In this document: positions 12,040 to 61,653 of the stretch, one piece after another
Layout: the number at the start of each line of letters is the position of its first letter
Numbering within the stretch: position 1 is the first letter of the stretch
Source of the DNA: Dehalococcoidia bacterium
GTDB taxonomy: Bacteria; Chloroflexota; Dehalococcoidia; Lucifugimonadales; VXLM01
DNA: 64,000 nt
Assembly (NCBI GenBank): GCA_009841605.1
Contig: VXLM01000139.1
Location: 4,257 to 68,256, forward strand
Direction of reading: 5' to 3'
The notes under the pieces: model-generated
What the model saw: the letters and a program-made list of their open reading frames with translations, nothing else
The model's database searches: none
What the model was told of the DNA's origin: nothing
Translations under genes and position numbers: made by a program

Positions 12040-12225
12040 TTCACCCTGAGCAGCGTTACGCCCCGGCACACCCACCGTAGGGGCAATCCCTTGTGGTTGC
12101 CCGTCCTCTCGTCCCTCCATTCACCCTGAGCAGCCTTATACCCCGGCTAACCCTTCGTAGGGGCAATCCCTCGTGGTTGCCCGTCCTCGTCCCTCCATTC
12201 ACCCTGAGCCTGTCGAAGGCTGACC
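12040..12225 (+). repeat. tandem repeat, about 2.3 units of 78-80 bp (family E half-site plus family F hairpin per unit)
   Basis: Units 12040-12119 and 12120-12197, plus a partial unit from 12198. Each begins TTCACCCTGAGC and contains GTAGGGGCAATCCCTTGTGGTTGCCCG. Confidence 0.88.
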
Positions 12226-12231
12226 AACAAA

Positions 12232-12270
12232 CCCCCTCTCCCGTCGTGGGAGAGGGCTGGGGTGAGGGTG
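12232..12270 (+). repeat. Family A hairpin repeat
   Basis: ccctctcccgtcgtgggagagggctggggtgagggtg, with one substitution in the tail. Confidence 0.9.
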
Positions 12271-12435
12271 ATGCCTTCACGTAGGAGCGAGCAGTTACTT
12301 GAAAGCAGCGTTACGCCCCGCGCACGGGCCCAGCAAGTGGAAGTAACTGCCGCTAAAACGACTTCTTTCCCTACTCTGCGCTCTCTGTGTTCTCTGCGGT
12401 GAATCTTCTTCTTGTTTTGAGCAGTTACTTGAAAG

Positions 12436-15442: not shown

Positions 15443-15555
15443 GTAACTATTCAGACTTCGTGGGAGTGTGCAAAGCGCACAGCCACCGTCATACCCGCGA
15501 AAGCGGGTATCCATAGGGGTGAGGGGTGTATGTCTCATTAACTCTGAACAGTTAC
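15443..15555 (+). mobile_element. Family C MITE-like element, uninterrupted (TIR GTAACTnTTCAGA... / ...TCTGAACAGTTAC, central ATACCCGC-GAAA-GCGGGTAT hairpin)
   Basis: 113 bp. Terminal inverted repeats and an 8-bp stem with a GAAA loop at 15491-15510, read directly. Confidence 0.8.
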
Positions 15556-17029: not shown

Positions 17030-17141
17030 GTAACTGTCCCGTCTTCGTGAGCGTGCTCGACACACATAACCACCGTCATACCCGCGAAAGCGGGTATCCA
17101 CACGGGACAGAGTGTTCAGCTCATCAACTCTGAACACTTAC
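17030..17141 (+). mobile_element. Family C MITE-like element, uninterrupted
   Basis: 112 bp. gtaactgtcccgtcttcgtgagcg...ccaccgtcatacccgcgaaagcgggtatcc...aactctgaacacttac. Confidence 0.8.
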
Positions 17142-22702: not shown

Positions 22703-22730
22703 CCGTTCACCCTGAGCCTGTCGAAGGGTC
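22703..22730 (+). repeat. Family E repeat
   Basis: ccgttcaccctgagcctgtcgaagggtcg, between the convergent Uma2 and ALDH genes. Confidence 0.85.
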
Positions 22731-22780
22731 GCTCTAGGCACCCTATAGCAAGCTGCCGTGAGCCGTCTATTGCCCCTTCA

Positions 22781-24625: not shown

Positions 24626-26887
24626 ATGACGACTACGCCTCCACTTTCAAAGTTTCTTGCCCTGCTCCTGGTGCTCGCGGCCGCAGCCGTATGGGCTTCT
24701 TGCGGGAGCGACACTACCTCCACTGAACCCACCGCGACGCCTCGCGTTGCGCCGTCATCCGGTCAGCCGGGAACAGCCTCGACCGCAAGGCAGACCACGA
24801 GCCGTCCTGCCTCCCTCGCGAAGACCAACCAGCGCAACATGAACGACCCACGCCAGGCATTCGGCGTGGTCAAGCTGGACAATGGCAAGGTACTCGTCAT
24901 CGGCGGCATCGGGCCCTACGGCTCCTTCCCCCTCGTGGAAGAATACGACCCCGCAACCGACACGTGGACGACCAAGGCGCGAATGCTGACCTCAAGGGCG
25001 TTCAGCCCGGCCATAGTGATGCAGGACGGTCGGATTCTGGTGATGGGCGGTTCGGGAGAGACGGAAAACCTCGACTCGGCCGAGTTATACGACCCCGATA
25101 CCGATACGTGGATTCAGGTCCGACGGATGATCGACAACCGTGGTCTCCACGACGCAATCCTCCTGGACGACGGCAAAGTGCTGGTGACCGGCGGGACGGG
25201 TCTAAGGGGCGGCGCCCTGAACACGGTCGAAGTCTACGACCCCGAAAAAGAGGACTGGTTCGAGCTTGCAAGCCTCCAGTTCCATCGCGGCTCCCACGGG
25301 TCCGTCCGGCTGCATGACGGGCGCATTCTCATCGCCGGAGGCGGAGACGGCGCAGGCACTCCTGTAGAGCAGGCGGAGATTTACGATCCCGCGACAGGTG
25401 AGTGGTCGTCGGGCGGCGTCATGACCACCGGGCGTGTCGCCCTCTCGCTGACCCTCCTCAACGATGGACGAGTTCTAGCATATGGAGGCGAGGAGTTCAG
25501 CAGCGCCGAGATATACGACCCCGAAACGAACACGTGGGCAGAACTGCCCGAACCCGGAGTGCCTCGCCAGGACCACACGGCCACCCTCCTGAACGACGGA
25601 CGAGTGTTGTTTGCCGGAGGAGGCCTCAAGCAAGGGACTACCGAAGACACCGCCGAGATTTTCGACCCCGAGACCGACCGGTTCGAGCCCGCCGGCAATA
25701 TGGACGCCGCGAGAGTTTCCCATCGCTCCGTCCTGCTCAACGACGGGCGAGTCATGGTCATCGGAGGCGCGCAGAGAACCGGCCCGTACGACACCGTCGA
25801 GTTCTACAATCCCGCGACGGAAACATGGGTCTCCGACCCGTTCCTCGGCTCATGGGAGAAGGCAGCCCCACTCGTGCAGCCGCGCGCCGGTCACACCACG
25901 ACGATTCTAGATGACGGCGCCCTGCTGATAGCGGGCGGAAGGGCGAGGCTCGACGAATCGGACATCCAGACACTCGTGGACTTCATCCCGGCCACCGAAA
26001 TATACAACCCGTCCACAGGCGAGTCCCGTGCCGTCGCAGATATGAACGACCCACGCGGCGGCCATATAGCGGCGGGGCTCCCGGGCGGGCGTGTGCTCGT
26101 CGCCGGCGGTAGGCAGTTGGTGATAGACGAAGAGGAAAGTAGAAAGATCACTTTCATCGGCACCGCTGAGATATACGACCCCGCCGACGATACGTGGACG
26201 CAGGTAGCCGACATGACCGTCGCCAGGTGGGCACACACCGGAATAGCGCTCGCGGATGGGACGGTCATGGTAGTCGGCGGCGAAAACGATGACGGCAAAG
26301 TCGCCACCGCCGAGGTCTATGATCCCGCCACGGACACTTGGACCGAGGTCTCTCGGATGGCCGACGGGCGCTCCGGCCACTCCATGGAACTTCTGCCGGA
26401 CGGTCGGCTCATGGTCGCTGGCGGCTCCGGTCCGACCGTCGAAGTGTACGACTTCGCCACGAGAACATGGTCGCTGCTGCCGAACTTGGACCAGCGCCTT
26501 CGTGATGCGGCCGTGGGTGTCCTGCAAGACGGCACCATCTTGGTCGCAGGCGGCTTCGGCTCACAGGGGCCGTCCAACTCGGCCCTGGTGCACGTATTGG
26601 GTACGACCCAGTGGGAGTACGTCGACCGCCTCCCGGAGGCCCGCGTAGGCTCGACTATGACACTGCTCGACAATGGTGGAATCCTCATGCTGGGCGGTAC
26701 GGGAACCACTAAGGCGTGGATATTCGACGGCACTGTCGGAGGATGGCTCTACGGCGGCAAGATGTTCGATTCTCGCAGAGACCACACCGCCACCCTGCTG
26801 CCGGACGGCAGGGTGATCACCATAGGCGGCGAGGCCAGAAACCGGGCCATCAACGACTCCGTCGAGATATACACGCCACCCCAGTAG
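24626..26887 (+). CDS. Kelch-repeat lipoprotein
   Basis: 753 aa. Signal plus lipobox (VWASCGS), Thr/Pro-rich tether, then about 14 repeats of the DGRVLV.GG...AEIYDP.T.TW type. Confidence 0.85.
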   Translation: MTTTPPLSKFLALLLVLAAAAVWASCGSDTTSTEPTATPRVAPSSGQPGTASTARQTTSRPASLAKTNQRNMNDPRQAFGVVKLDNGKVLVIGGIGPYGSFPLVEEYDPATDTWTTKARMLTSRAFSPAIVMQDGRILVMGGSGETENLDSAELYDPDTDTWIQVRRMIDNRGLHDAILLDDGKVLVTGGTGLRGGALNTVEVYDPEKEDWFELASLQFHRGSHGSVRLHDGRILIAGGGDGAGTPVEQAEIYDPATGEWSSGGVMTTGRVALSLTLLNDGRVLAYGGEEFSSAEIYDPETNTWAELPEPGVPRQDHTATLLNDGRVLFAGGGLKQGTTEDTAEIFDPETDRFEPAGNMDAARVSHRSVLLNDGRVMVIGGAQRTGPYDTVEFYNPATETWVSDPFLGSWEKAAPLVQPRAGHTTTILDDGALLIAGGRARLDESDIQTLVDFIPATEIYNPSTGESRAVADMNDPRGGHIAAGLPGGRVLVAGGRQLVIDEEESRKITFIGTAEIYDPADDTWTQVADMTVARWAHTGIALADGTVMVVGGENDDGKVATAEVYDPATDTWTEVSRMADGRSGHSMELLPDGRLMVAGGSGPTVEVYDFATRTWSLLPNLDQRLRDAAVGVLQDGTILVAGGFGSQGPSNSALVHVLGTTQWEYVDRLPEARVGSTMTLLDNGGILMLGGTGTTKAWIFDGTVGGWLYGGKMFDSRRDHTATLLPDGRVITIGGEARNRAINDSVEIYTPPQ

Positions 26888-26926: not shown

Positions 26927-26950
26927 GTAACTGTTCAGAGTCCGTGAGAA
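26927..26950 (+). repeat. solo left terminus of family C (gtaactgttcagagtccgtgagaa)
   Basis: Matches the left TIR of the family C elements. No right end or central hairpin follows. Confidence 0.6.
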
Positions 26951-32278: not shown

Positions 32279-32291
32279 CGCCGTTTCAGAC

Positions 32292-32333
32292 TTATCCCCT
32301 CTCCCGTTTGCGGGAGAGGGCTAGGGTGAGGGT
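32292..32333 (+). repeat. Family A hairpin repeat (10-bp stem, loop tttg)
   Basis: ttatcccctctcccgtttgcgggagagggctagggtgagggt. Its tail overlaps the last codons and the stop of fabL on the opposite strand. Confidence 0.9.
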
Positions 32334-35731: not shown

Positions 35732-35901
35732 GAATCCCTCACCGCCCAATTCAAGTCGGACGATTATAGAACGCAGCCGCCGTCCGCGCAATTCAGCGAT
35801 AGGACTCGTTGCTGTACCCACTTGGTGGAAAGTCCACCCCCACAGAAGGTTTGCAGTCGCCCCATTTTCATTCCTCTGAAAACAAACCCCGACAAACCCG
35901 T

Positions 35902-35927
35902 TGTAGGGGCAACCCTTGTGGTTGCCC
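35902..35927 (+). repeat. Family F hairpin (GTAGGGGCAACC-cttgt-GGTTGCCCG)
   Basis: 8-bp stem. The same unit occurs at 12077, 12157 and 56592. Confidence 0.85.
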
Positions 35928-36102
35928 GCCTCCGGTCCGCTCCCTCTTTCATTCCAGGTGGTGAGGATGGCAATCCTCATGAAATACAGAGTCTGACTTG
36001 GCGCGAAGGTACATACGCCCATTTGAACCAGTCTCGACTTACAACCGACAAGCTCGAAAGCTTCCCCTTGCGTGGGATAAAATGTCACTGGGAGGAACCA
36101 CC

Positions 36103-39290: not shown

Positions 39291-39324
39291 GTCCGTTCGA
39301 CCTGAGCCTGTCGAAGGGCAATTC
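39291..39324 (+). repeat. Family E repeat
   Basis: gtccgttcgacctgagcctgtcgaagggcaattc. Confidence 0.85.
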
Positions 39325-39390
39325 ATGATTCGGAATGACATACTAACGGGTCCCACGCTAATCTGGCACAGGTCTTGGCCCGGGAATTCG

Positions 39391-40080: not shown

Positions 40081-40191
40081 CACCCTCACCCCTCCGGCAA
40101 GTAGGGGCGATTCGCGAATCGCCCCTTATCCCCTCTCCCGTCGTGGGAGAGGGCTAGAGCCTGCCCCGTACTTGATACGGGGGTGAGGGTG
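40081..40191 (+). repeat. composite: family G 24-nt perfect palindrome, plus family A hairpin interrupted by a family I hairpin, bounded by CACCCTCACCCC / GGGGTGAGGGTG
   Basis: AGGGGCGATTCGCGAATCGCCCCT at 40103-40126. The A hairpin starts at 40126 and its tail is split by CCCCGTA-cttga-TACGGGG (40164-40182). The outer 12-nt inverted arms are at 40081-40092 and 40180-40191. Confidence 0.85.
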
Positions 40192-43655: not shown

Positions 43656-44645
43656 CTATTTTGATTCCGGCAGTCGGATGGCGTACAGGGATCCGTCCGT
43701 CGACCCCACGTACACGACTCCGTCGGCCACCGTGGGTGACGAAGAAACGGGGCCCTCCGTCGCGTATTGCCAGAGCAGTTCCCCCGTCTCTGCGGATGCC
43801 GCGTAGAGATTGTGGTCGAACGATCCGAAGTACACCACGCCCTCGGCTATGGCCGGAGACGACTCGACCCGGCCGCCGGTAGGGAGTCGCCATCGAAGCG
43901 ACCCAACTTCCGCGTCCAACGCATAGAGATGACCGTCCCTCGATCCCACGTACACGACTCCTTCCGCTACCGCCGGTGATGAGACCACCCAGTCATTGGT
44001 GCGATATCGCCATCTCTCCACGCCGGTGTTTGCGTCAACGGCGTAAACATGACCGTCCCAAGAGCCGAAGTACACGTACCCGTTCCCGACAGCGGGTGAG
44101 GAAAACACAACGTTGTCCGCCTTCGCGCGCCACATGATGGTCCCCGTCCCGGCGTCCAGTGCGTACAGGTGCCCATCATTCGATCCGACGTACACCACGC
44201 CGTCGACAACGCGAGGTGATGACATAATCCAGTCTTCCGTGCCCGAGCGCCAGACGATTTCGCCCGTCGCGGCCTCCAGCGCGTAGACGTGATGATCGGT
44301 GGAGCCGACGTACACTATCCCATTGACGACCGCCGGGGACGAAAATACGCCCTCCCCAAGCCGGCTGCGCCAGACCACTTCGCCCGACGATGCGGCAAGT
44401 GCATACACATACCCGTTCCACGAGCCGACGTACACAACTCCCTCGGTCACACGCGGCGATGAATAGACCTTGTCGCCTGAGTCGAACGACCAGCGCTGCT
44501 CTCCGAGCTCGGCGTCCAGCGCCAGCAGACTGCCGTCCTCCGAGCCGACGAATACCACCCCATCAGCTACGGTAGGGCTGGACGATACGGCGTCTCCGGT
44601 CTTGTGCCGCCGGATGAGATGTGCTTCTTTCAACGTCTGTTGCAT
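43656..44645 (-). CDS. eight-bladed PQQ-like beta-propeller repeat protein without signal peptide
   Basis: 329 aa made of 8 units of about 40 aa, SSP.V.DGVVYVGS.DG.LYALDA.TGE..W. Starts 5 nt after the upstream FtsX gene stop. N-terminus MQQTLKEAHLIRRHKTGD is not hydrophobic. Confidence 0.85.
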   Translation of the reverse strand: MQQTLKEAHLIRRHKTGDAVSSSPTVADGVVFVGSEDGSLLALDAELGEQRWSFDSGDKVYSSPRVTEGVVYVGSWNGYVYALAASSGEVVWRSRLGEGVFSSPAVVNGIVYVGSTDHHVYALEAATGEIVWRSGTEDWIMSSPRVVDGVVYVGSNDGHLYALDAGTGTIMWRAKADNVVFSSPAVGNGYVYFGSWDGHVYAVDANTGVERWRYRTNDWVVSSPAVAEGVVYVGSRDGHLYALDAEVGSLRWRLPTGGRVESSPAIAEGVVYFGSFDHNLYAASAETGELLWQYATEGPVSSSPTVADGVVYVGSTDGSLYAIRLPESK

Positions 44646-44650
44646 ACGAA

Positions 44651-47600
44651 CTACTCGCCGAAACGTGATATTGCCCGCAGGTCAAGCTGGCCCACTCCCC
44701 TGTTGAGCAGAACGAGTGCGGCGACGAACAGGAGACCCAGCGCGACGTAGGTGGTCCCCATGATGAGCCAGTCGGTCGAAAGGATGAAGGGCGGCGTGAC
44801 CGGAAGTCCGGTCTCGGTAATCGCTAATGGCGAGACCGTGAGACGGCTCATCTGGAATCCGGCCCAAGTACCGAGACCGAGACCGATCGCGGCCACCGCC
44901 AGATGCTCGAAGCCCAGGAGCCTGAGCAGTTGGCCTCTGGTGAGACCCAGGGTCCGCAACGAACCGATCTCGACTGCGCTCTTCTTGGCGAAGAGCAGGA
45001 GATACGTGACATACCCGACAGCGGCGGCAAAGACCGCTATTGCCGGAGAGAGTATCGTCATCGGCTGCCAACCTGCCGCGACGAAGGGATTGATCTGCAG
45101 ACTTTCGAGACGGCCCTGCCCGTCGCGGACGGACCCACCCTGCGGGCCGAGTATCTCAACCACGGCCTCCCCGACTCGCTCGTGCGAGCCCGGCTTGAGA
45201 TCGTAGTACAGGTCCAGTGCTCGTATTCGATGGTGATTGAGAAGCACGTTGGCGCGGTCCAGCAGGCTGTTCAAATCGGTCAGAATCAGCCCGCCCTGGC
45301 TCGGATCGTGTGTCGGGAAGAAGTCGACCACTTCCACCACCCTCATGCGGAGCCAGCGCAGGCCCACCAAGGCGATGAAGGTGCTCCCCTCCTGCCGGTC
45401 GGGACGAACGAGAGACGAGTCTATCACCACGGGCAGAGGACCCGGAACGGATGTCGGGTAGAAACCTCGCAGCCCCTGCGTGGTCTGCCCGCTGAAAGTG
45501 TAGGCTATTGCCTTCGAGCCGTTTCGCACCTCGTTCGCGGAGAACTCGACCACCTCTGTAGATGCCGCCGACGTCAGGATCGCCTCCCACTTGAGATCGG
45601 CTCCCTCGAAGTCGTCGAGCACCAGCTCTTCGTTCTCAAAGCCCACCGTGGCGATGATGTCGTCGATGTAGAGCGTGCCCGGCGTCACGGGGGAGGCATC
45701 AAGACCTGCGTTAGGATCGCCCCCCGGCTCGAACATGTGGATCGAGACAAGCGAGAACGGAGGTTTGACGTGGTCGGGAATATTGCCGATCACGAACTGC
45801 CAGTCTTCCGTGCGAAGCGTGTTGAAGATGACGGTCTGTAGCTCACCCCGCTCGTTTTCGATTTGCGCGTACAGGTCGAGTCCTGGAATGAACGGATCGG
45901 GCTTTACCCACAGGCCGATGCCGTTCGTGTCGTCGGGCAGAGGTATCCTTCCCGTCGGCGCATTGGGATTGAGCCGGTCCATCAGTTGTGGCAGCGTGCT
46001 GTCCGAAAAGTCGTCGCGATACCACGCGACATCGGCGAAGCCCGACGTGTCCACGGCGAGTACCTCCGCGGTGGAACCGCCGGCCGTACCGCGCTCTCGG
46101 AGCCCTCGTACCACGTTCTCGACATCCTCAAGCTCCTGGGACTTGCGATGAACTTCCTGCACGCCTCCTTGGGCGAGCAGAGAGGCGGTGACCCGCAGAT
46201 CGGCCCCTTCCTCGAAGAGGACGCGCTCGATCTGGCTGCGTTCCAGCGTGCCGCCGACCGTTGTCGCCAGGATGCCGAGACCGGTCGCGAGGACGAGCAG
46301 CAGGATGAGCCACGTGTATTGGAGCGGGTTGCGCGACATGTGGAGCAGACCGATCTCCAGCCACACCGGCGTCACGCGGCTGAGACCGGTGAATAAGACG
46401 AACAGCAGCTGCGCCGGTACCACGGCAATGAGCCCCCATGTCGGGACGGTCAGCAGATCGCCGGACACCGGAGGCCGCAGGACGACGAATCCAGCGACGA
46501 GCAGCGCCTGTACGACGAGCCCGGCGTATCTGCGCTTTCGGTCGTGCCAGTAGCGTTTCGTCGCCCAGAAGGCGATGAGGACCGCCAACGCCAACGCTCC
46601 CGGCAGCAGCCAGTCAAGCGTCTCATTCCCACGTTCGCGCCAGTAGACCCCAACGACGGATGCGACGACCGACGCCGCCACCAGCAGGTCCACGATGCGG
46701 CTCGACTCGCCGCTGATGTACCGGACGATCATCGGGAAGAACCGCATGAACACCAGCGTCACGACGATCAGGAAGAGAACGGGCGCGACGAGGAGCACCT
46801 CGTTGACCTCGGTCTCCTCGAAGTAGCCGCTGTAAACGAACTGTCCGCGCTTCTGGAGCTCCCAGTAGATCAGGCCCCCGAAGACGAGGATGCCGATGTC
46901 TAGATTGAATCTCTGGAGGAAGGGGAGTCCAAGCGGACGTGATGTCTGAAGCCGGCGTAGGAGCACGCCTCCCTGCGCGCTGAGCACGTTGGGCACAACG
47001 AAAATCGCAAGGCAGAGCAAGCCGACCCCCAGTGAGATGATGAAGGGAGTGGCGGCTAGGCGTATCGGCATGAGATTGCCCTGGTTCATCTCCTCGAAGA
47101 AGGGCAGCACTCCCGAAACGGCGACCATTCCGTAGGCCAGGAACGGGGTCACGATCACGGCTGTCGCGACCATCACGAGACCTTCGGTCATGTATATCCG
47201 GGTCAGCTGCGAGAGAGTCGCCCCGAGGGTCTTGAGGAGCGACGCGTCGCCTTCCCTGCTCTGCGTCAGGTACGAAACGAGAATGCCGAGGAAGAACAGC
47301 ACGGTCAGCAAAATCACCGTGAGCAACAGCAGCATCGGTATCTTGGCGTAGAAGTTGCGTAGCTGTCCCGACTCCGTCAGGTTCTCCACGAACTCCGTGG
47401 TAGCGTCGGCGTCGGGAAGCTCGGAGGTAATGGCGTCGGAGAAGGCGCTGAATCGCTCCCTGGCCTCTGCCGCCGACCACTCTTTGAGTCGCTCCGGGTC
47501 GATCTTGACCACCCATTGAGGGCTTACCACTGCGCCGGGGTAGGTCTCCGAGAGAAGCTGCGCCATAACCTCCGGCGCGACGATGATCGGAATGTTTGAG

Positions 47601-48910
47601 AGGGAATTGTCCGACAGGACGAGGAACGGCGTGTCCTGCCGTTGAGGATCGAGGCTCAGCAGCGCGCCGGTGGAGCGCCAGTACGGCGAGTTCTTGTCGT
47701 CCTCTTCGTAATAGCCCACTACCCGCACCGTGATGATTTCACGCTCACCAAGTTCCGGTGAGAAGTAAAATTCGTCCCCGATCTCGGTCTGCGTCCGCAG
47801 GGATACGCCGCGATGCACGATAGCTTCGATCATGGGGCCGCGCGGGCCTTGTGTGATTTCCGTGCTCGCCGTTCCGCCCTGCTCGAACACGATGTTGTCC
47901 TCGAAATTCGAGAGCGACACGAGGAATCCCAGGCGCGCGATGATGCCCTGACCTGTACTTACCGGAAGATTATTGTTCGGCGTGCTGACCAGCATAGGCA
48001 CGCCCTTGACGTACGTCTCCTGTCCGAGGAAGGTCGTCTCCGCGACGAGGTCCTGCAGGGCGACACGCATGGCCGTCTCGTCGGCGAAGAGGGTTAGAGG
48101 AGTTTCCCCGGGTCTCTGAACCGTCAAGTACGGCGCGGGAGTTTCGATGACGGGCGGACTGAGCGCCTCGCCGTTCGAACCCCACACACGGGCTTCCGGG
48201 TCCAGCGGCTCGAAGATGCCGGTGATGACGATGCCGATGCCCGGTGGCCCGACCGGTATCGGAGCCGGCGTCGAATCGAGAAGCTCCGCGAGTTCGTCAT
48301 CGTCCTCACCCTCGTCCGTAGCCGTCGATACCGCTCTCTGAGCCAGGAGATCGGCGGCGAGAATGACCTCGTCGTCGACTTCGAGCTCGAAGCGCTCAGC
48401 CATTTCCGACGAAACCACGGCCTCGATAACCGCTCCGAACGTGCCGCTGTCGATCGTGCCGGAAGCCATCTCCCCCTTGACGAACCTCACGTGCGACGGC
48501 AGGTTCGAGAGGTGCTGGAGATAGCCCCGCGAGACGTAGATGCCCTCTCCTGTCCCCTCAGGCAAGGGTAAGTCCGGCGTTCCTATGATGGCGACACGGC
48601 TCTTGATGAATTGTTCATGCCCGTCGTACACGTCCGCAATGTGCTCTTCGATGGCGTCCGTGACGACCTGATCGGCGTGCCTGAGCGATTTCTCGGTCGC
48701 CACCACTTCCGCGCCGAAGACATCGATCTTCGGCTCGTCGATCCGGTCAAGCGCGGCGTTGAACGAAAGCTGGTCGAGGGATTCGAGGTATATCGGCGTG
48801 CCCGCGCCGATGGTCGTGGCAATCAGTATGCCGATGAACACCGTCAGCAGAAGCTTCCAGTCGTCGGCGATGCGCCGAACGATTACCCTTGTTAGCGAGA
48901 GATTCTTCAT
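44651..48910 (-). CDS. giant double-FtsX-domain membrane protein (paralog of 40211-43630)
   Basis: 1419 aa. TM1 at about residues 19-42, ECD1 about 43-523, FtsX module about 524-645, about 6-7 central TMs, ECD2 about 890-1283, FtsX module about 1284-1405. Shares VAW(Y/F)RDDF(S/T)D and other collinear motifs with the paralog. Confidence 0.8.
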   Translation of the reverse strand: MKNLSLTRVIVRRIADDWKLLLTVFIGILIATTIGAGTPIYLESLDQLSFNAALDRIDEPKIDVFGAEVVATEKSLRHADQVVTDAIEEHIADVYDGHEQFIKSRVAIIGTPDLPLPEGTGEGIYVSRGYLQHLSNLPSHVRFVKGEMASGTIDSGTFGAVIEAVVSSEMAERFELEVDDEVILAADLLAQRAVSTATDEGEDDDELAELLDSTPAPIPVGPPGIGIVITGIFEPLDPEARVWGSNGEALSPPVIETPAPYLTVQRPGETPLTLFADETAMRVALQDLVAETTFLGQETYVKGVPMLVSTPNNNLPVSTGQGIIARLGFLVSLSNFEDNIVFEQGGTASTEITQGPRGPMIEAIVHRGVSLRTQTEIGDEFYFSPELGEREIITVRVVGYYEEDDKNSPYWRSTGALLSLDPQRQDTPFLVLSDNSLSNIPIIVAPEVMAQLLSETYPGAVVSPQWVVKIDPERLKEWSAAEARERFSAFSDAITSELPDADATTEFVENLTESGQLRNFYAKIPMLLLLTVILLTVLFFLGILVSYLTQSREGDASLLKTLGATLSQLTRIYMTEGLVMVATAVIVTPFLAYGMVAVSGVLPFFEEMNQGNLMPIRLAATPFIISLGVGLLCLAIFVVPNVLSAQGGVLLRRLQTSRPLGLPFLQRFNLDIGILVFGGLIYWELQKRGQFVYSGYFEETEVNEVLLVAPVLFLIVVTLVFMRFFPMIVRYISGESSRIVDLLVAASVVASVVGVYWRERGNETLDWLLPGALALAVLIAFWATKRYWHDRKRRYAGLVVQALLVAGFVVLRPPVSGDLLTVPTWGLIAVVPAQLLFVLFTGLSRVTPVWLEIGLLHMSRNPLQYTWLILLLVLATGLGILATTVGGTLERSQIERVLFEEGADLRVTASLLAQGGVQEVHRKSQELEDVENVVRGLRERGTAGGSTAEVLAVDTSGFADVAWYRDDFSDSTLPQLMDRLNPNAPTGRIPLPDDTNGIGLWVKPDPFIPGLDLYAQIENERGELQTVIFNTLRTEDWQFVIGNIPDHVKPPFSLVSIHMFEPGGDPNAGLDASPVTPGTLYIDDIIATVGFENEELVLDDFEGADLKWEAILTSAASTEVVEFSANEVRNGSKAIAYTFSGQTTQGLRGFYPTSVPGPLPVVIDSSLVRPDRQEGSTFIALVGLRWLRMRVVEVVDFFPTHDPSQGGLILTDLNSLLDRANVLLNHHRIRALDLYYDLKPGSHERVGEAVVEILGPQGGSVRDGQGRLESLQINPFVAAGWQPMTILSPAIAVFAAAVGYVTYLLLFAKKSAVEIGSLRTLGLTRGQLLRLLGFEHLAVAAIGLGLGTWAGFQMSRLTVSPLAITETGLPVTPPFILSTDWLIMGTTYVALGLLFVAALVLLNRGVGQLDLRAISRFGE

Positions 48911-49046
48911 GTCACGAAAACATGCAGGAGATCGTCGGCTGCTTGATGAGACCCACTTTCGTTAGCCCTAATCCCAAATGAAGGACAACGCCCCCGATAG
49001 TCTTAAACGTCGTTCACGCATGGGTGTTAGCCGTCCCACGTGAACA

Positions 49047-49177
49047 CTAAGGAACTATCTCAAAATACGCTTCGACACGTTTTCTCCACACGCGGGCTCA
49101 GAGAACAATACGTTCGCCCTGAGCTTGTCGAAGGGCAATTCTTGGCCAACAAACATAGTTTTAAGATAGTTTCCAAG
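49047..49177 (+). mobile_element. Family Y element (degenerate TIR CTAAGGAACTATCTC / GATAGTTTCC) with a family E core
   Basis: About 131 bp, collinear with 53830-53956. Confidence 0.7.
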
Positions 49178-49259
49178 CCTAGCTGCACCTCTTGGAAATC
49201 TAATGATAGTCCCGTCCAGTTCGCGTATCAACCGCTTGGGCTCGTCGAAGTTCCGCCGT

Positions 49260-49523
49260 GTAGCTGCTCAGAGACCGTGAGCGCGCTCGACACACACAGC
49301 CACCGTCATACCCGCGAAGAGCTTCCCCCGTACCCCGATACGGGAGAGACCTTTGCATAACCCCTGATGGGAGCCTGGAAATCCCTTCCCCCTTGATGGG
49401 GGAAGGTTAGGATGAGGGTGAAATTCGCGCCACTAAGGCAATACCTGGAGGTTATGCAAATGTCACCGAAAGCCCGGAATCCGCAGGGGCGAGGCATTCC
49501 CCTCGCCAACTCTGAACACTTAC
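49260..49523 (+). mobile_element. Family C element with nested insertions (family I hairpin plus 112-bp family Z unit carrying an A-variant hairpin)
   Basis: Outer ends gtagctgctcagagaccgtgagcg / aactctgaacacttac. The C hairpin is split after catacccgcgaag. Z unit at 49350-49461. Confidence 0.8.
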
Positions 49524-49539
49524 CGAGCCGTCAGCCCGG

Positions 49540-49568
49540 TTGACGCCTCGCCCCCTGACGACTATCCT
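49540..49568 (+). promoter_or_regulatory. candidate promoter TTGACG-N17-TATCCT positioned for a leaderless ygfZ mRNA
   Basis: The -10 element ends 6 nt before ATG 49575 and no SD is present. Confidence 0.3.
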
Positions 49569-49574
49569 CGAAAT

Positions 49575-50582
49575 ATGGGACCTGTAGCAAATCTCCATGC
49601 CGAAGTTCTCCTCGATGGATCCTTGACCGCAGAGGAGCAATACCGCGCCCTGACTTCGGGCGTCGCGGTGCTGGACCGTTCCGACGCTGGGCGACTAGCC
49701 CTCACGGGCGATGACGCGCTCGACCTCCTGAACCGCCTTTCCACCAACGAGCTCGCGACCCTCGAAGTCGGCGCAGGTGCTGCCACCGTCCTGACGACGA
49801 ACAAGGGACGTATCGTTGACTTGCTTCACGTCCACCGGAGCGAAGACCGGTTGGTGGTATTCACCTCCCCGGAGAATCAGCAGCGCGTGGCCGAGTGGAT
49901 TGACTTCTATACCTTTGTTGAGGATGTGGAGATCGAAGACGTAACTAGCGAGACGGCTATGCTCTCGCTCACCGGCCTCGATTCGACGAAATTCTTGGAC
50001 GAGCTCACGGACGGCCAGGCATCGTTGTTAGCGACCTATGAACGATTGAGCACACAGATTTCCGATGTCACTGCCGAGGTGTACCGCAGCGACTTCCTGG
50101 GGCCGCCTTCATTCGACATCGTCTTCGACGCCGAACACAGGGATAACCTCTTCGGAGTACTCACAGACAATGGCGCGACACCCGCTGGCCCGGACGTGAT
50201 CGAGGCCCTTCGAGTCCAGCGCGGCATCCCCGCGTTCGGCAAGGAGTTGACCGAGGACTACAACCCGCATGAGGCCAACCTCGTCCACCACGTGAGCTTC
50301 TCGAAGGGATGCTACATCGGGCAAGAGGTAATCGCCCGGCTCCAGACCTACAAGAAAGTCAGTAAGTACCTCGTCGGCCTTCGGTGGGACGGCGACGGCC
50401 CTGCACCGGGCTCCTTCCTGACGCACGACGGCAAGCGGATGGGCATAGTCACGTCCGTGGCCCGCCTGCCCCATACCGGAGCAAACGTCGGTCTTGCCTA
50501 CGTCCGCAAGCAGTTCGTCGACGACGGCACGACGGTTGTCGACGAGACCGGAATCGAGATCACGATCAAGGTCCTCATCTAG
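49575..50582 (+). CDS. ygfZ: YgfZ/GcvT-like folate-binding protein
   Basis: 335 aa. GcvT-fold N-terminal half and the family signature KGCYIGQE. Confidence 0.8.
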   Translation: MGPVANLHAEVLLDGSLTAEEQYRALTSGVAVLDRSDAGRLALTGDDALDLLNRLSTNELATLEVGAGAATVLTTNKGRIVDLLHVHRSEDRLVVFTSPENQQRVAEWIDFYTFVEDVEIEDVTSETAMLSLTGLDSTKFLDELTDGQASLLATYERLSTQISDVTAEVYRSDFLGPPSFDIVFDAEHRDNLFGVLTDNGATPAGPDVIEALRVQRGIPAFGKELTEDYNPHEANLVHHVSFSKGCYIGQEVIARLQTYKKVSKYLVGLRWDGDGPAPGSFLTHDGKRMGIVTSVARLPHTGANVGLAYVRKQFVDDGTTVVDETGIEITIKVLI

Positions 50583-51454
50583 CCCGCCATCTCGTCGAAC
50601 ACAATGCGCGATATCCGCGCCAGCTTCGGATCGAGGTCGGTGCTGTCTGTTATCCGCTTCGCCATGATCGCCACGGCGTACGGCCCGCTCGGTCCCCACA
50701 CGATTCCCACGTCGCAGCGGACGCTGTAGACGCCTCCCGTCTTGTGGGCCGCGATGACGTCCGGGGGCAGGTAGTACGGGATGATGCTCCTGAGCTTCTG
50801 GCGCTTGAGAATATGGAGCATTCCGTCCCGTGACCCCTCCGACAGGAAATCGCCGTTGTGGACGATCTCCAGCAGGCGCACCATGTCGGCAGGCGACGAG
50901 ACGTCGGACTTCTCCTCGTTCAGCGCGTCGCAGTCGGGCGACAGCCCACGGTATCCCTGCTCCACCCGGTCGGATACCTCCCAGAAATCGTCCAGCGACT
51001 CGCTGACCGTGAGTCCCGCCAGGCTGAAGAGAAGATCGCGGCACGACATCGGCAGCTTGGTCTTGTTGAGGCCGAGATCCCCCATCGTGCGATTCAGGTC
51101 GTCCTTCCCCACGGTGTGATACAGGATGTCGGTGGCGAGGTTGTCGCTCACGATGATCATCAGCATCGCGAGATCGTGCAGATTCGGAGCCAGGCCATTC
51201 CCAAGCTCTCTCAAGACCCCTGAGCCCGGCACTCGGAGGATGTCGGTCAGCTCGACACGCTGCGAGAGATCGAGCGTGCCCGCATCGACCTGGCGATAGA
51301 GCTCCGCCAGTATGGGCACCTTGAAGGTGCTCGCGGTGAAGAACACCTCATCGGCGTTGTGCTCGATCGTCTTCCCCGTCTCGAGGTGTCGCGCGGCCAC
51401 GCCCACCACGCCGGGAACTTCGGAGACGGCCTCTGAAATTGTCGTCATGTTCAA
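50579..51454 (-). CDS. class-A beta-lactamase-like serine hydrolase, no signal peptide
   Basis: 291 aa. S-x-x-K (STFK), S-D-N (VSDNLATD) and K-T-G (HKTGG) motifs in class-A order. The N-terminus lacks a hydrophobic leader. Confidence 0.8.
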   Translation of the reverse strand: MNMTTISEAVSEVPGVVGVAARHLETGKTIEHNADEVFFTASTFKVPILAELYRQVDAGTLDLSQRVELTDILRVPGSGVLRELGNGLAPNLHDLAMLMIIVSDNLATDILYHTVGKDDLNRTMGDLGLNKTKLPMSCRDLLFSLAGLTVSESLDDFWEVSDRVEQGYRGLSPDCDALNEEKSDVSSPADMVRLLEIVHNGDFLSEGSRDGMLHILKRQKLRSIIPYYLPPDVIAAHKTGGVYSVRCDVGIVWGPSGPYAVAIMAKRITDSTDLDPKLARISRIVFDEMAG

Positions 51455-51505: not shown

Positions 51506-51649
51506 CTAGTGTCCTGTGTCAGAGATTCAACGAACAAAACAGCGGGTGATTTATCCTCTCTCCCTTGATGGGAGAGGGCTAGGGTGAGGGTGACTCCCCG
51601 GAACGCACCTATCTGATTTATACAACGAACTTCAAATGCAGGACACTAG
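51506..51649 (+). mobile_element. Family W element (11-bp TIR CTAGTGTCCTG / CAGGACACTAG) carrying a family A hairpin
   Basis: TIRs at 51506-51516 and 51639-51649. The A copy at 51551-51592 has loop ttgat. Confidence 0.7.
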
Positions 51650-52824: not shown

Positions 52825-52852
52825 CGTAGGGGCGATTCGCGAATCGCCCCTA
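52825..52852. repeat. Family G 28-nt perfect palindrome GTAGGGGCGATTCGCGAATCGCCCCTAC
   Basis: Read directly. The same palindrome occurs at 40101-40126 and, degenerate, at 60759-60786. Confidence 0.9.
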
Positions 52853-52860
52853 CTTCCATA

Positions 52861-53086
52861 GTATCTGTTCAGACTTCGTGAGAGCCCTCAGCATACACAG
52901 CCACCGTCATACCACCTTTGCACAATCCCTGATGGGAGCCTGGAAATCCCTTCCCCCTTGATGGGGGAAGGTTAGGATGGGGGTGAAATTCGCGACGCTA
53001 AGGCATAACTGGAGGTTACGCAAAGGTCTCCGAAAGCGGGTATCCACAGGGGGAGGGTGTTCCTCTCATCAACTCTGAACAGTTAC
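52861..53086 (+). mobile_element. Family C element with a nested 112-bp family Z unit (four structural layers)
   Basis: Outer TIRs. The C hairpin is split into 52901-52913 and 53032-53045. Z unit at 52915-53026 with ends cctttgcacaa / ttacgcaaagg. Inner hairpin ccttccccc-ttgat-gggggaagg. Confidence 0.85.
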
Positions 53087-53239
53087 CTTTCATGTTTCGC
53101 GGTGAGGGCAAAACCCTCCTGAGATTCTCTGAAAAAGTTGCGTCCCGACAGATTAGCCCACTCCCTCCGACTGGACGAAGGTAGGCGTAAACCAGAAACG
53201 CGCGCCTCCTCAACCCAACATAACCCTACGCCAGTAAGA

Positions 53240-53829: not shown

Positions 53830-53956
53830 TGGAAGCTGTCTCAAAACACACTCCGACGAATCTTTCCCACACACACGCTCAGAAAATCACGTTCGCCCTG
53901 AGCCTGTCGAAGGGCAATCCTCCGCCAGCGCACATAAAATGGAGATAGTTCCTTAG
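53830..53956 (+). mobile_element. Family Y element, second copy
   Basis: ggaagctgtctcaaaaca...cgttcgccctgagcctgtcgaagggcaat...ggagatagttccttagg, collinear with 49047-49177. Confidence 0.7.
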
Positions 53957-56509: not shown

Positions 56510-56591
56510 GTATTTTGAAACTCCCGGCAATCTCAACGTCAACTCGGACAAAACCGTCATCGCCATGAAAATGGGCCACGCCAAATCCGTC

Positions 56592-56617
56592 GTAGGGGCA
56601 ACCCTTGTGGTTGCCCG
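56592..56617 (+). repeat. Family F hairpin
   Basis: gtaggggcaacccttgtggttgcccg. Confidence 0.85.
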
Positions 56618-56697
56618 TTCGCGGCGGCAATGCACTTTCATCCCCTTCTGTGTCCTGTGCAGGTCCGGAGTGGTGTCCGCTAATGGTGGCCCATGAA

Positions 56698-56737
56698 TAT
56701 CCCCTCTCCCGTCATGGGAGAGGGCTAGGGTGAGGGT
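56698..56737 (+). repeat. Family A hairpin repeat (loop gtcat)
   Basis: tatcccctctcccgtcatgggagagggctagggtgagggt. Confidence 0.9.
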
Positions 56738-56799
56738 ATCTTGAGGAAGCTGCCAAAATCATATGGAACCGGTACGAGATATTGTTGGTGGACAAGGCT

Positions 56800-59554: not shown

Positions 59555-59625
59555 CCCCCTCACCTTTGAAGGGTTGACAGGGGTATGTAAAACGGTTTTC
59601 AGCTACGATCCGGCCCCGCCGCACT

Positions 59626-59799
59626 GTCATTCCGAGCGCAGCGAGAAATCTAAAGTCCTTCACCGCAAGACCGGATAGTCAGTGCCGCGCTTCTATCGTG
59701 ACGAAGAGTGAAAACCGCGGAAGAATTTTCCATATCAGCCTTACGTTGTGACAGACACTTTTAGATTCTTCGACTCCGCTGCGCTTCGCTCAGAATGAC
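59626..59799. repeat. Family H inverted-repeat pair (GTCATTCCGAGCGCAGCGAG..AATCTAAAG) flanking about 100 bp
   Basis: Left arm 59626-59655. Right arm 59758-59799 is its imperfect reverse complement with a short internal insertion. Confidence 0.75.
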
Positions 59800-59822
59800 G
59801 GTGCGGAGCTACTTCCTCGTCA

Positions 59823-60107
59823 ATGGAGCCCCTGACAGACTTGCGCATCCTCGCCTCGCAGCGCTTCTGGACAACTGTGAAGTTGCTGGAAGTTCCCCAC
59901 CTGAAAGCGCGGGAGATGGTTGTGGACGTACACGATCCCGCACGCGGAGACTACTGGATAATCGGATGCCCGATAAAGGATGAGGGTAACGACGTTGAGG
60001 TTCGACCGCCGCCCCTGCTCGACTAGGATTCGGAAGAGGTGCTTACCGATCTGCTGGGAATGAGCCGCGAGGAGATCGAAGCGTTGCCGGACGCAGGAGT
60101 AGTCTGA
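59823..60107 (+). pseudogene. remnant of a family III (CaiB/BaiF) CoA-transferase gene
   Basis: Only about 94 codons. PLTDLRIL resembles the family N-terminus and HLKAREMVVDVHDP...IGCPIK...RPPPLLD*DSEEVLTDLLGMSREEIEALPDAGVV resembles the C-terminus. In-frame TAG at 60024-60026. The roughly 300-aa core is absent. Confidence 0.55.
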
Positions 60108-60758: not shown

Positions 60759-60786
60759 GTAGGTGTGATTCACGAATCGCCCCCTA
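60759..60786. repeat. Family G palindrome, degenerate copy
   Basis: gtaggtgtgattcacgaatcgcccctac. Its right arm contains the stop codon of the SCO1 gene (opposite strand). Confidence 0.75.
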
Positions 60787-61512
60787 CCCATCCTCCCCCA
60801 ACAACGCCCGCACATCCCCCACCACGTCCTCAGGCTCGATCGGCAGCGTGTGGAGCACCCGCACCCTCCCCTGCCTATCAATCAGATACACCGGTGCCTG
60901 GTGCGCCACCGTATACCGTGACGCGATGTCGCGACTCAACGCATCGACCCCTCGCACCCTGTCGACCTTCCACTCCTCCGGCACGTCTGCGACTCGTCCC
61001 TCCTCGTCCACTGCCGCGACCACGTAGTACGCCTCCCAGACCGGGCTGAGGTCCTCCTCGCTTCCAACGAGATACCTCCAGTTCTCGGCCATCCCCCACG
61101 CCTCCGAGTACTCCAGCGCCCGCTCGACCGTGTCCCGCTCCGGGTCCACGCTCACGACCACGATGGATACCTCCGCCGCATCATCCCCCAGCCTCTCGGA
61201 CATCGCCTTCACATGGTGCGCCACGATGGGACAGATATCGGGACAGTACGTGTACAGAAAAGTGAGGACGACGACCCTGTCCTCATTCAACTGACCGAGC
61301 GAGACCGGTCGCCCGAACTGGTCCGTCAGCCGGAAGTCCTGCGTCTCTCGTCGGTCCTCGATGACCGTTCCCGAAAACTCCGCGTCCCCACCGCCCGTCG
61401 AGCATCCAGCGAGAATAAGGGGAAAAAGAATGACCGCCGCCTGCCATGTCGCGAGGATTACCAGACCCGTTCGTGCTGAGCCTGTCGAAGCGCGATGCGT
61501 CAAATCACTCAA
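60784..61512 (-). CDS. SCO1/SenC-family copper chaperone (thioredoxin fold), lipoprotein-type leader
   Basis: CxxxC motif in VVLTFLYTYCPDICP plus a downstream His. Leader ...ILFPLILAGCS. Next to cytochrome oxidase genes. Confidence 0.88.
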   Translation of the reverse strand: MSDLTHRASTGSARTGLVILATWQAAVILFPLILAGCSTGGGDAEFSGTVIEDRRETQDFRLTDQFGRPVSLGQLNEDRVVVLTFLYTYCPDICPIVAHHVKAMSERLGDDAAEVSIVVVSVDPERDTVERALEYSEAWGMAENWRYLVGSEEDLSPVWEAYYVVAAVDEEGRVADVPEEWKVDRVRGVDALSRDIASRYTVAHQAPVYLIDRQGRVRVLHTLPIEPEDVVGDVRALLGEDG

Positions 61513-61574: not shown

Positions 61575-61615
61575 TTATCCCCTCTCCCGTCGTGGGAGAG
61601 GGCTAGGGTGAGGGT
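61575..61615 (+). repeat. Family A hairpin repeat
   Basis: ttatcccctctcccgtcgtgggagagggctagggtgagggt. Confidence 0.9.
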
Positions 61616-61653
61616 ATTCTTCGAACAATCAGCCAAAATAAATGGACCCGCGA

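Follow-up and report, generated by a model that had tools for sequence, protein, structure and literature searches.

A probable nest of non-autonomous transposable elements, built by serial insertion, in a Dehalococcoidia chromosome

How does a short intergenic stretch of a bacterial chromosome come to hold several repeats, one inside another? The question is raised by positions 52861-53086 (226 bp) of a 64,000-nucleotide stretch of DNA, hereafter the window, from an uncultured soil Dehalococcoidia (Chloroflexota). The window has a G+C content of ~61% and carries ordinary chromosomal genes, including GcvT paralogues, a peptide ABC transporter, IF3 and cytochrome oxidase assembly genes. A sequence-only reading had described the locus as four concentric layers (outer inverted ends, a split hairpin, a 112-bp unit with inverted ends of its own and a further hairpin within that unit) and, from filled and empty versions in the same window, had proposed serial insertion into the hairpin loops of older repeats. 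We conclude that the locus is very probably a nest of non-autonomous transposable elements, built by serial insertion.

The layers lie where that reading had placed them. The outer ends occupy 52861-52884 and 53071-53086, the halves of the split hairpin 52901-52913 and 53032-53045, and the inner hairpin, CCTTCCCCC-TTGAT-GGGGGAAGG, at 52949-52971, is indeed a variant of an abundant repeat, here called AB. The intact 30-nt hairpin, CCACCGTCATACCCGC-GAAA-GCGGGTATCC, occurs exactly twice (15483-15512 and 17070-17099), with 0.00 occurrences expected from dinucleotide-preserving shuffles, and the remaining layers (inner hairpin, outer ends and left end of the inner unit) are likewise far above chance. 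In a three-way alignment, the flanks of the insert are collinear on both sides with the intact elements at 15443-15555 and 17030-17141. The 112-bp unit also occurs outside the outer element, in the loop of another hairpin (L002:500-680; L numbers denote sampled related loci) and at two places free of the outer element; its location at 52915-53026 was given correctly, but the true inner element is ~123 bp long and is 5'-truncated here. A second filled copy, at 49260-49523, had escaped the earlier reading; its inner unit is 94-95% identical. Serial insertion at the composite is supported for two steps, that of the outer element (OUT) into the chromosome and that of the inner element (INN) into the OUT loop. 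The central hairpin (layer 2) and the G-rich hairpin (layer 4) are present in every copy of OUT and INN seen, respectively, so that a separate insertion of these layers can only be conjectured; since every OUT copy has the central hairpin, the first two layers behave as one element. The features are listed in Table 1.

Table 1. Elements of the nest and related copies, in window coordinates
Feature	Position	Strand	Remark
Composite: OUT with INN in its hairpin loop	52861..53086	+	
Left target-site duplication of composite, CTTCCATA	52853..52860	.	6/8 match to 53087-53094
Right target-site duplication of composite, CTTTCATG	53087..53094	.	
OUT left arm: IS66/ISBst12-like end GTATCTGTTCAGAC, CGTC tag, truncated left stem CGTCATACC	52861..52913	+	
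INN, 5'-truncated, ACCTTTGCACAAT ... GGTTACGCAAAGGTCTCC	52914..53031	+	INN consensus positions 5-123, 96% identity
INN module: hairpin CCTTCCCCC-TTGAT-GGGGGAAGG and G-rich tail, AB-repeat variant	52944..52989	+	Loop is the target of a ~270-bp MITE in relatives
OUT right arm: loop GAAA, right stem GCGGGTAT, CCA tail, right end TCTGAACAGTTAC	53032..53086	+	GAAA loop is the retained target-duplication copy
Second filled composite: OUT, SH (49319-49345) and full-length INN (49346-49467)	49260..49523	+	
Flanks of the 49260..49523 composite, TCCGCCGT and CGAGCCGT		+	Orthologous empty site in L015
Unfilled OUT	15443..15555	+	Flanks TTTGGCTT and TTCGGCTC, 6/8 match
Unfilled OUT	17030..17141	+	
Isolated degenerate OUT-type left end GTAACTGTTCAGAGTCCGTGAGAA, unrelated interior	26927..26949	+	Variant left end also in L019
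SH mini-hairpin AGCCTGCCCCGTACTTGATACGGG, after CTAG in AB-repeat tail	40158..40182	+	
M240 (~270-bp MITE), window copy, ends TTGACAGGGG...CCCCTGACAG	59574..59838	+	

In a genome-collection scan, a 20-mer of the inner unit matched two Dehalococcoidia metagenome-assembled genomes, and one contig (L006) is 95% identical to window positions 44323-50960. The flanking ADP-ribosylglycohydrolase, used as a protein query, retrieved many orthologues (66-96% identity, nearly all in ENA assemblies), whose syntenic loci are L008-L016 and L018-L020. A viral collection scanned with OUT and INN patterns gave 0 hits, as did both metagenome scans, the latter pointing to absence of the lineage from that collection, and BLAST of the composite against plasmids returned a single marginal 36-nt match. 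No promoter or terminator sites were found between 52600 and 53400. All copies of the elements lie in spacers among ordinary metabolic genes, in variable orientation relative to their neighbours. The periodic direct repeats at 43693-44582 and 24943-26349 (periods of 120 nt and ~144-147 nt) lie inside protein-coding genes, encode beta-propeller blades (PQQ-like, Kelch) and are unrelated to the nested elements.

OUT is a non-coding element of ~113 bp, found at five sites in the window and at more in relatives, with the inverted ends GTAACTGTTCAGA and TCTGAACAGTTAC in 13 copies. Its 8-bp flanking repeats are perfect (8/8) at L014:3539-3775 (CGAGACAC) and around a tandem pair in L001 (GTGGAAAC), and match at 7/8 positions in L008 (TCCGCCGT and TGCGCCGT) and at L018:5998-6111 (AAGAGTA); the copies at window 17030 (3/8) and L014:9339 (1/8) have no recognisable duplication. 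The spacer between GcvT and FtsX is uninterrupted in L015 (...GCTTCCGCCGT/CACCCCGGTTGACGCC, also read ...CCGCCGT/CACCCCGG..., the slash marking the junction here and below), and OUT occupies exactly this point in the window, L006, L008, L010 and L013. OUT ends read GTAACT(A/G)TTCAGAC, and GTAACTRTTCAG resembles the ends of insertion sequences of the IS66 family (ISBst12 group). The window copy at 15443 begins GTAACTATTCAGAC, its first 12/12 nucleotides being identical to the right end of an IS of G. kaustophilus pHTA426; this IS has the ends GTATCTATTCAGCCC and GTAACTATTCAGCCC and a perfect 8-bp duplication, GACGAGTT, and its 485-aa product matches DDE_Tnp_IS66 (PF03050) with an E value of 1.9e-64, plus zf-IS66. 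ISDge4 of Deinococcus geothermalis, a member of the ISBst12 group, has the ends GTAACTGCTCAGCA and an 8-bp direct repeat (PMC12898284), and inverted repeats starting with GTAA and 8-bp direct repeats characterise IS66 elements (PMC11946415). When 12 OUT copies are aligned, their common fold is a rod running through the inverted ends, with a covariation term of ~0 and one pair changed on both sides; such a fold without covariation fits a MITE rather than a selected RNA. Judged by these sequence features, OUT is a mobile MITE.

The centre of OUT, in full at 15487-15514 and 17074-17101, reads CGTC-ATACCCGC-GAAA-GCGGGTAT-CCA. This hairpin agrees on every point with the definition of the CGTC-1 REP, namely a CGTC tag, an 8-bp stem beginning with AT, a 4-nt loop and a CCA tail (Di Nocera, De Gregorio and Rocco 2013, PMC3733652). 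The same survey noted that REPs may be enclosed in longer palindromes and that loops may comprise up to 27 complementary bases, and CGTC repeats were not reported in it from Chloroflexi (PMC3733652). In all the DNA sampled here, neither a free-standing CGTC repeat nor a head-to-head dimer was found, the hairpin being always inside OUT or another larger frame.

INN, also non-coding, measures ~123 bp in its full form (~120-123) and ends in GGAGACCTTTGCRTAAC ... GTTAYGCAAAGGTCTCC, inverted over 17-21 bp. Its cleanest junction, in L014, is CGCGAAAG/GAGAC...GGTTTCC/CAAAGCGGG, an insertion into the tetraloop with a ~4-bp duplication; the ~4-bp target duplications of INN are GAAA/CAAA and GTAG/TTAG. 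The insert in the 52861 copy is ~118 bp long in the three-way alignment and replaces CGC of the left stem. This copy has lost the first 4 nt of INN together with host CGCGAAA, 11 bp in all at the left (junction CATACC/ACCTTTG), and its right junction, GGTCTCC/GAAAGCGGG, is as in the clean copy of L014. At L002:500-680, INN occupies the loop of a different CGTC-type hairpin (CCGTCATTCCCGCGTAG/GGAGAC...GGTCTCC/TTAGGCGGGAATCC, also written CGCGTAG/GGAGAC...GGTCTCC/TTAGGCGGG), whose intact sister repeat lies at L002:4957-5032. It also occurs without OUT at L007:694-1092, after the half-hairpin CGTCATTCTCGC-TTTCA, and at L002:5287-end. Because INN is found in a different hairpin repeat and outside OUT, it moves independently, and it is a second MITE.

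The identical truncated junction recurs at two unrelated loci, window 52861 and L001 (orthologue L002:3374-3626), and an untruncated composite in L014 is flanked by a perfect 8/8 duplication, features showing that the OUT+INN composite also moves as a unit. Every INN copy hosted by OUT could therefore go back to one INN-into-OUT event, and the independent INN insertions would then be few, 2-3 at hairpins of 4. INN cores are 91-96% identical versus 74-89% for OUT arms. We dropped the argument that INN is younger than its hosts as proof of separate insertions, since the contrast is equally present among copies with a common truncated junction. The spacer orthologous to that of 52861, between FMN reductase and ADP-ribosylglycohydrolase, has neither OUT nor INN in L008, L010 and L013 and contains an AB repeat with or without the MITE M240. 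Rather than a clean empty site, it is a hot spot of repeat turnover, and the basis for insertion at 52861 is the 6/8 duplication together with the presence of the composite at other loci.

Further layers and intermediate states are found in the relatives. M240, a MITE of ~270 bp with ends CTGACAGGGGTAGGCA, lies in the hairpin loop of INN in L007, with a perfect 10-bp duplication (CCCTTGATGG), and at the same INN-loop position in L001 in the opposite orientation; the opposite orientations mark these as independent events. SH is a 24-27-nt hairpin (...CCCGTAC-N-GATACGGG) without inverted ends or a clear duplication, and comes in two subtypes. Subtype 1 follows CTAG or TTAG in the tail of an AB repeat or the INN variant (window 40158-40182, L002, L007, L008, L013 and L018), and subtype 2 lies at the 3' loop edge of three different CGTC hairpins (L014 OUT, L018:18189 and L013:3812) as well as between loop and INN in the composite of the 49260 type. 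At the GcvT/FtsX site, the elements are absent in L015; OUT+SH, with a hybrid left flank, is present in L014, OUT+SH+INN in the window, L006, L008 and L010, and INN ends enclosing further repeats in L013 and L019. At the orthologous loci L001 and L002, the composite common to both has acquired SH in one genome, and in the other M240 together with a further OUT. These genomes thus offer a natural record of how intergenic repeat nests are built, with intermediate states kept in relatives.

Two OUT loci have an unusual arrangement. At L001:3638-4252 (minus strand), a filled and an empty OUT stand head to tail with CCAC between them, and the perfect 8-bp duplication flanks the pair and not its single members; the orthologue in L002 has the filled copy alone. 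The pair resembles the product of abutted ends, as in an IS dimer or circle junction. The OUT copy at the GcvT spacer of L014 (5920-6120) has an orthologous right flank and a non-orthologous left flank, Trypsin_2 replacing FtsX, an arrangement consistent with recombination between two OUT copies.

These observations, namely inverted ends, duplications of 8, ~4 and 10 bp, filled and empty states and the repeated use of loop positions, can be arranged into the following scheme. OUT inserted into intergenic DNA, generating 8-bp target duplications, and INN entered the GAAA tetraloop of the central CGTC-type hairpin of OUT, duplicating ~4 bp of the loop. The composite was then copied to new sites as a unit by means of OUT's own ends, with the 52861 copy representing a sub-lineage that lost the 11 bp at its left junction. 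SH and M240, the latter with its 10-bp duplication, inserted at the edge of, or inside, the hairpin loops of earlier elements, as seen in the relatives. The palindrome apex may be a preferred target, either because symmetric, easily distorted DNA is favoured or because the palindrome is extruded as a hairpin, and each insertion would supply a new palindrome as the next target. In target capture by DDE enzymes generally, the complex of transposase and target has two-fold symmetry and prefers DNA that is easily distorted or extruded.

The window and the ~250 kb of related loci yielded a single transposase, that of an unrelated IS5-like element, and Pfam scans of 39 window ORFs and of 9 ORFs adjacent to the elements (in L001, L002 and L007) revealed none. 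The IS5-like element, at L013:1211-2559 (DDE_Tnp_1), was rejected as a partner, its ends, TAACAGGCTGCGGAA, being unrelated to the elements. Since the sampled DNA contains no matching transposase, we infer the mobilising enzymes only from end sequences and duplication lengths. OUT would be served by an IS66-type DDE transposase encoded elsewhere in the genome, for which a PF03050 (IS66) gene with GTAACTGTTCAG ends would be the candidate. DDE transposases encoded elsewhere are also the presumed mobilisers of INN (candidates: IS5-, IS701- or IS3-like genes flanked by GGAGACCTTTGCGTAAC) and of M240 (candidate: an IS4-like gene flanked by CTGACAGGGGTAGGCA). SH, having neither inverted ends nor a clear duplication, may move by another route.

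The window holds many other dispersed repeats, and nearly all the small repeats share one orientation. On the + strand are 5/5 OUT, 7/7 AB, 3/3 copies of the GTAG-type repeat REP2 and 7/8 copies of the CTGAGCCTGTCGAAGG repeat. The + strand has a negative GC skew (it is C-rich) in + genes, - genes and intergenic DNA alike, and orientation is related to skew in the same way at the independent loci L001, L002 and L007. Across the window, L001, L002, L007, L008-L016 and L019, the OUT, INN, AB, SH and REP2 repeats, a second CGTC-hairpin frame and CTGAGCCTGTCGAAGG are nearly all co-oriented relative to local GC skew. Exceptions are OUT at L018:5998-6111 and AB+SH at L018:7442-7497, and M240 occurs in both orientations. 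Strand-specific selection on hairpin or G-rich motifs and replication-coupled insertion are possible causes of the co-orientation.

The AB repeat, TTATCCCCTCTCCC-GTCG-TGGGAGAGGG-CTAGGGTGAGGGTGA, lies at 1693-1735, 12229-12271, 32291-32333, 40126-40190, 51551-51593, 56697-56739 and 61575-61617. The 3' part of AB, GGGAGAGGGCTAGGGTGAGGG, has the canonical quadruplex pattern G3N3G3N3G3N3G3. Since its first two G-runs double as the hairpin stem, a switch between hairpin and quadruplex is possible. In some copies (window 56697, L018:7380-7550 and L013), AB forms the middle of a larger frame, whose ends resemble CTAGTACCG.... Classical GTAG-tagged REP hairpins are of two kinds, REP1 (GTAGGGGCGATTCGCGAATCGCCCCTAC; 40101-40126, 52826-52853 and 60759-60784) and REP2 (GTAGGGGCAACCCTTGTGGTTGCCC; 12077-12102, 35903-35927 and 56592-56616), and one of them stands 8 bp from the 52861 composite. 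Such GTAG-tagged REPs would be natural substrates of a RAYT, none of which was found for them in the sampled DNA. A frame beginning TCATYCCTCTGAAAAYA (window 35868-35928 and 56557-56617; L002:4957-5032; L019:11780-11850) is centred on a GTAG-type hairpin (REP2) in some copies and on one of CGTC type in others, which suggests that central hairpin modules are interchangeable within MITE-like frames. Another dispersed repeat, CGTTCRCCCTGAGCCTGTCGAAGGGC, is present in ~8 copies (12196-12229, 22704-22737, 39294-39327, 49111-49144, 53890-53923, 61468-61501 and others), and in a 70-nt version at 49102-49171, ~120 bp upstream of the 49260 composite, and at 53881-53950, ~800 bp downstream of the 52861 composite.

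The shared orientation is one observation that speaks against insertion by DDE transposases, since a plain DDE model does not predict a bias relative to GC skew. It enters into the suggestion of the earlier reading that a RAYT or IS200/IS605-type enzyme is a candidate mobiliser, on which view all layers would be REP-like hairpins moved as single-stranded DNA by an HUH tyrosine transposase. Replication-coupled single-strand transposition is expected to leave repeats co-oriented with respect to GC skew, the hairpins bear CGTC tags or, nearby, the GTAG tags typical of REPs (PMC3733652), and SH has no inverted ends and no clear duplication. OUT and INN, however, do not fit, for their terminal inverted repeats are long and their target duplications of fixed length, and the OUT ends match a DDE IS family; moreover, L018 holds oppositely oriented copies, and no Y1 transposase was detected in the window or sampled loci. 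As an account of all layers, we therefore consider this proposal very unlikely, though it may hold for SH as well as for free AB and GTAG repeats. Still less credible is a family of structured non-coding RNA genes with a variable apical domain, which would not be mobile DNA at all. The region does fold better than shuffled controls (z = -2.6 on the + strand and -4.5 on the - strand), with a few G-U-compatible changes in the stems. Yet Rfam gave no match at the gathering threshold over the whole window and nothing but noise (E > 6) for the region, the RNAalifold covariation term is ~0 with 1/34 pairs changed on both sides, and the orientation relative to flanking genes is inconsistent; nor would an RNA gene explain the target duplications, the empty site and the IS-type ends.

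A different objection leaves mobility intact and replaces targeting by selection: insertions might occur anywhere, with survivors only inside pre-existing repeats, the safe havens of a compact genome. Coding density is high, and intergenic spacers are hot spots of repeat turnover, that between FMN reductase and ADP-ribosylglycohydrolase holding different repeats in each genome. Selection alone would nevertheless permit insertion anywhere within a repeat, whereas independent events hit the same nucleotides: M240 entered the INN loop twice, in both orientations, SH lies at the same loop edge in 3-4 different hairpins, and INN occupies the loops of two hairpin families. We accordingly hold survival bias to be an improbable explanation. 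Serial insertion of non-autonomous elements remains our preferred reading, and it can be extended to a bolder one, in which hairpin loops, as cruciforms or as single strands at the replication fork, are a structure-specific integration target for at least three unrelated mini-elements. This extension is speculative and, on present evidence, unlikely. If true, it would describe a self-perpetuating 'Russian doll' system in which each insert (25-nt hairpin, 123-bp MITE, ~270-bp MITE) supplies the next hairpin; replication-coupled insertion or strand-specific selection would account for the near-uniform orientation relative to GC skew, and the 25-nt SH would rank among the smallest mobile DNAs known.

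Our data suggest that the apex of a palindrome is a general hot spot of insertion, used by elements that differ considerably in duplication length, a possibility that bears on target choice by transposases. In metagenome-assembled genomes, repeat nests of this kind also give rise to spurious ORFs, break assemblies and offer substrates for recombination. The MITE families described here are new; the phenomenon of nested mini-transposons is already known. With them, a MITE of IS66/ISBst12 type and CGTC-type hairpins are documented in Chloroflexota.

OUT shares with IS66/ISBst12 elements, such as ISDge4 and the single-ORF IS66-like element of pHTA426, inverted repeats beginning GTAACT(A/G)(T/C)TCAG and an 8-bp target duplication. 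Unlike these elements, it is 113 bp long, has no transposase gene and contains a CGTC-type hairpin as its interior; the PF03050 transposase is present in the Geobacillus comparator, and none was found in the sampled DNA of this lineage. The central hairpin has the tag, stem, loop and tail of a CGTC-1 REP, which is a free-standing repeat, whereas here it is the core of a MITE that has inverted ends and makes target duplications. REPIN/RAYT systems and IS200/IS605 elements have neither terminal inverted repeats nor target duplications, and their Y1 HUH gene is flanked by the repeats; OUT and INN have both the inverted ends and the duplications, and no Y1 gene came to light in the window or the sampled loci. 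For bacterial MITEs, of which Nezha and Chunjie are examples, filled and empty orthologous sites have been documented (PMC3184786; PMC3733652). Like bacterial MITEs, E. coli BIMEs and the mosaic regions of Neisseria, the elements studied here are short intergenic repeats combined in mosaics, but BIMEs and Neisseria mosaics are mostly side-by-side arrays, whereas here the nesting is concentric, at hairpin apexes. Mobile elements that insert specifically into palindromic repeats are also known from the REP-targeting insertion sequences IS1397, ISKpn1, IS621, ISPpu9/10 and ISPa11, and span the five families IS3, IS110, IS4, IS256 and IS5 (Tobes and Pareja 2006, PMC1525189). The inserts of the present nests differ from these in being tiny and non-autonomous and in bringing a new palindrome with them, with the result that they stack up to five layers deep.
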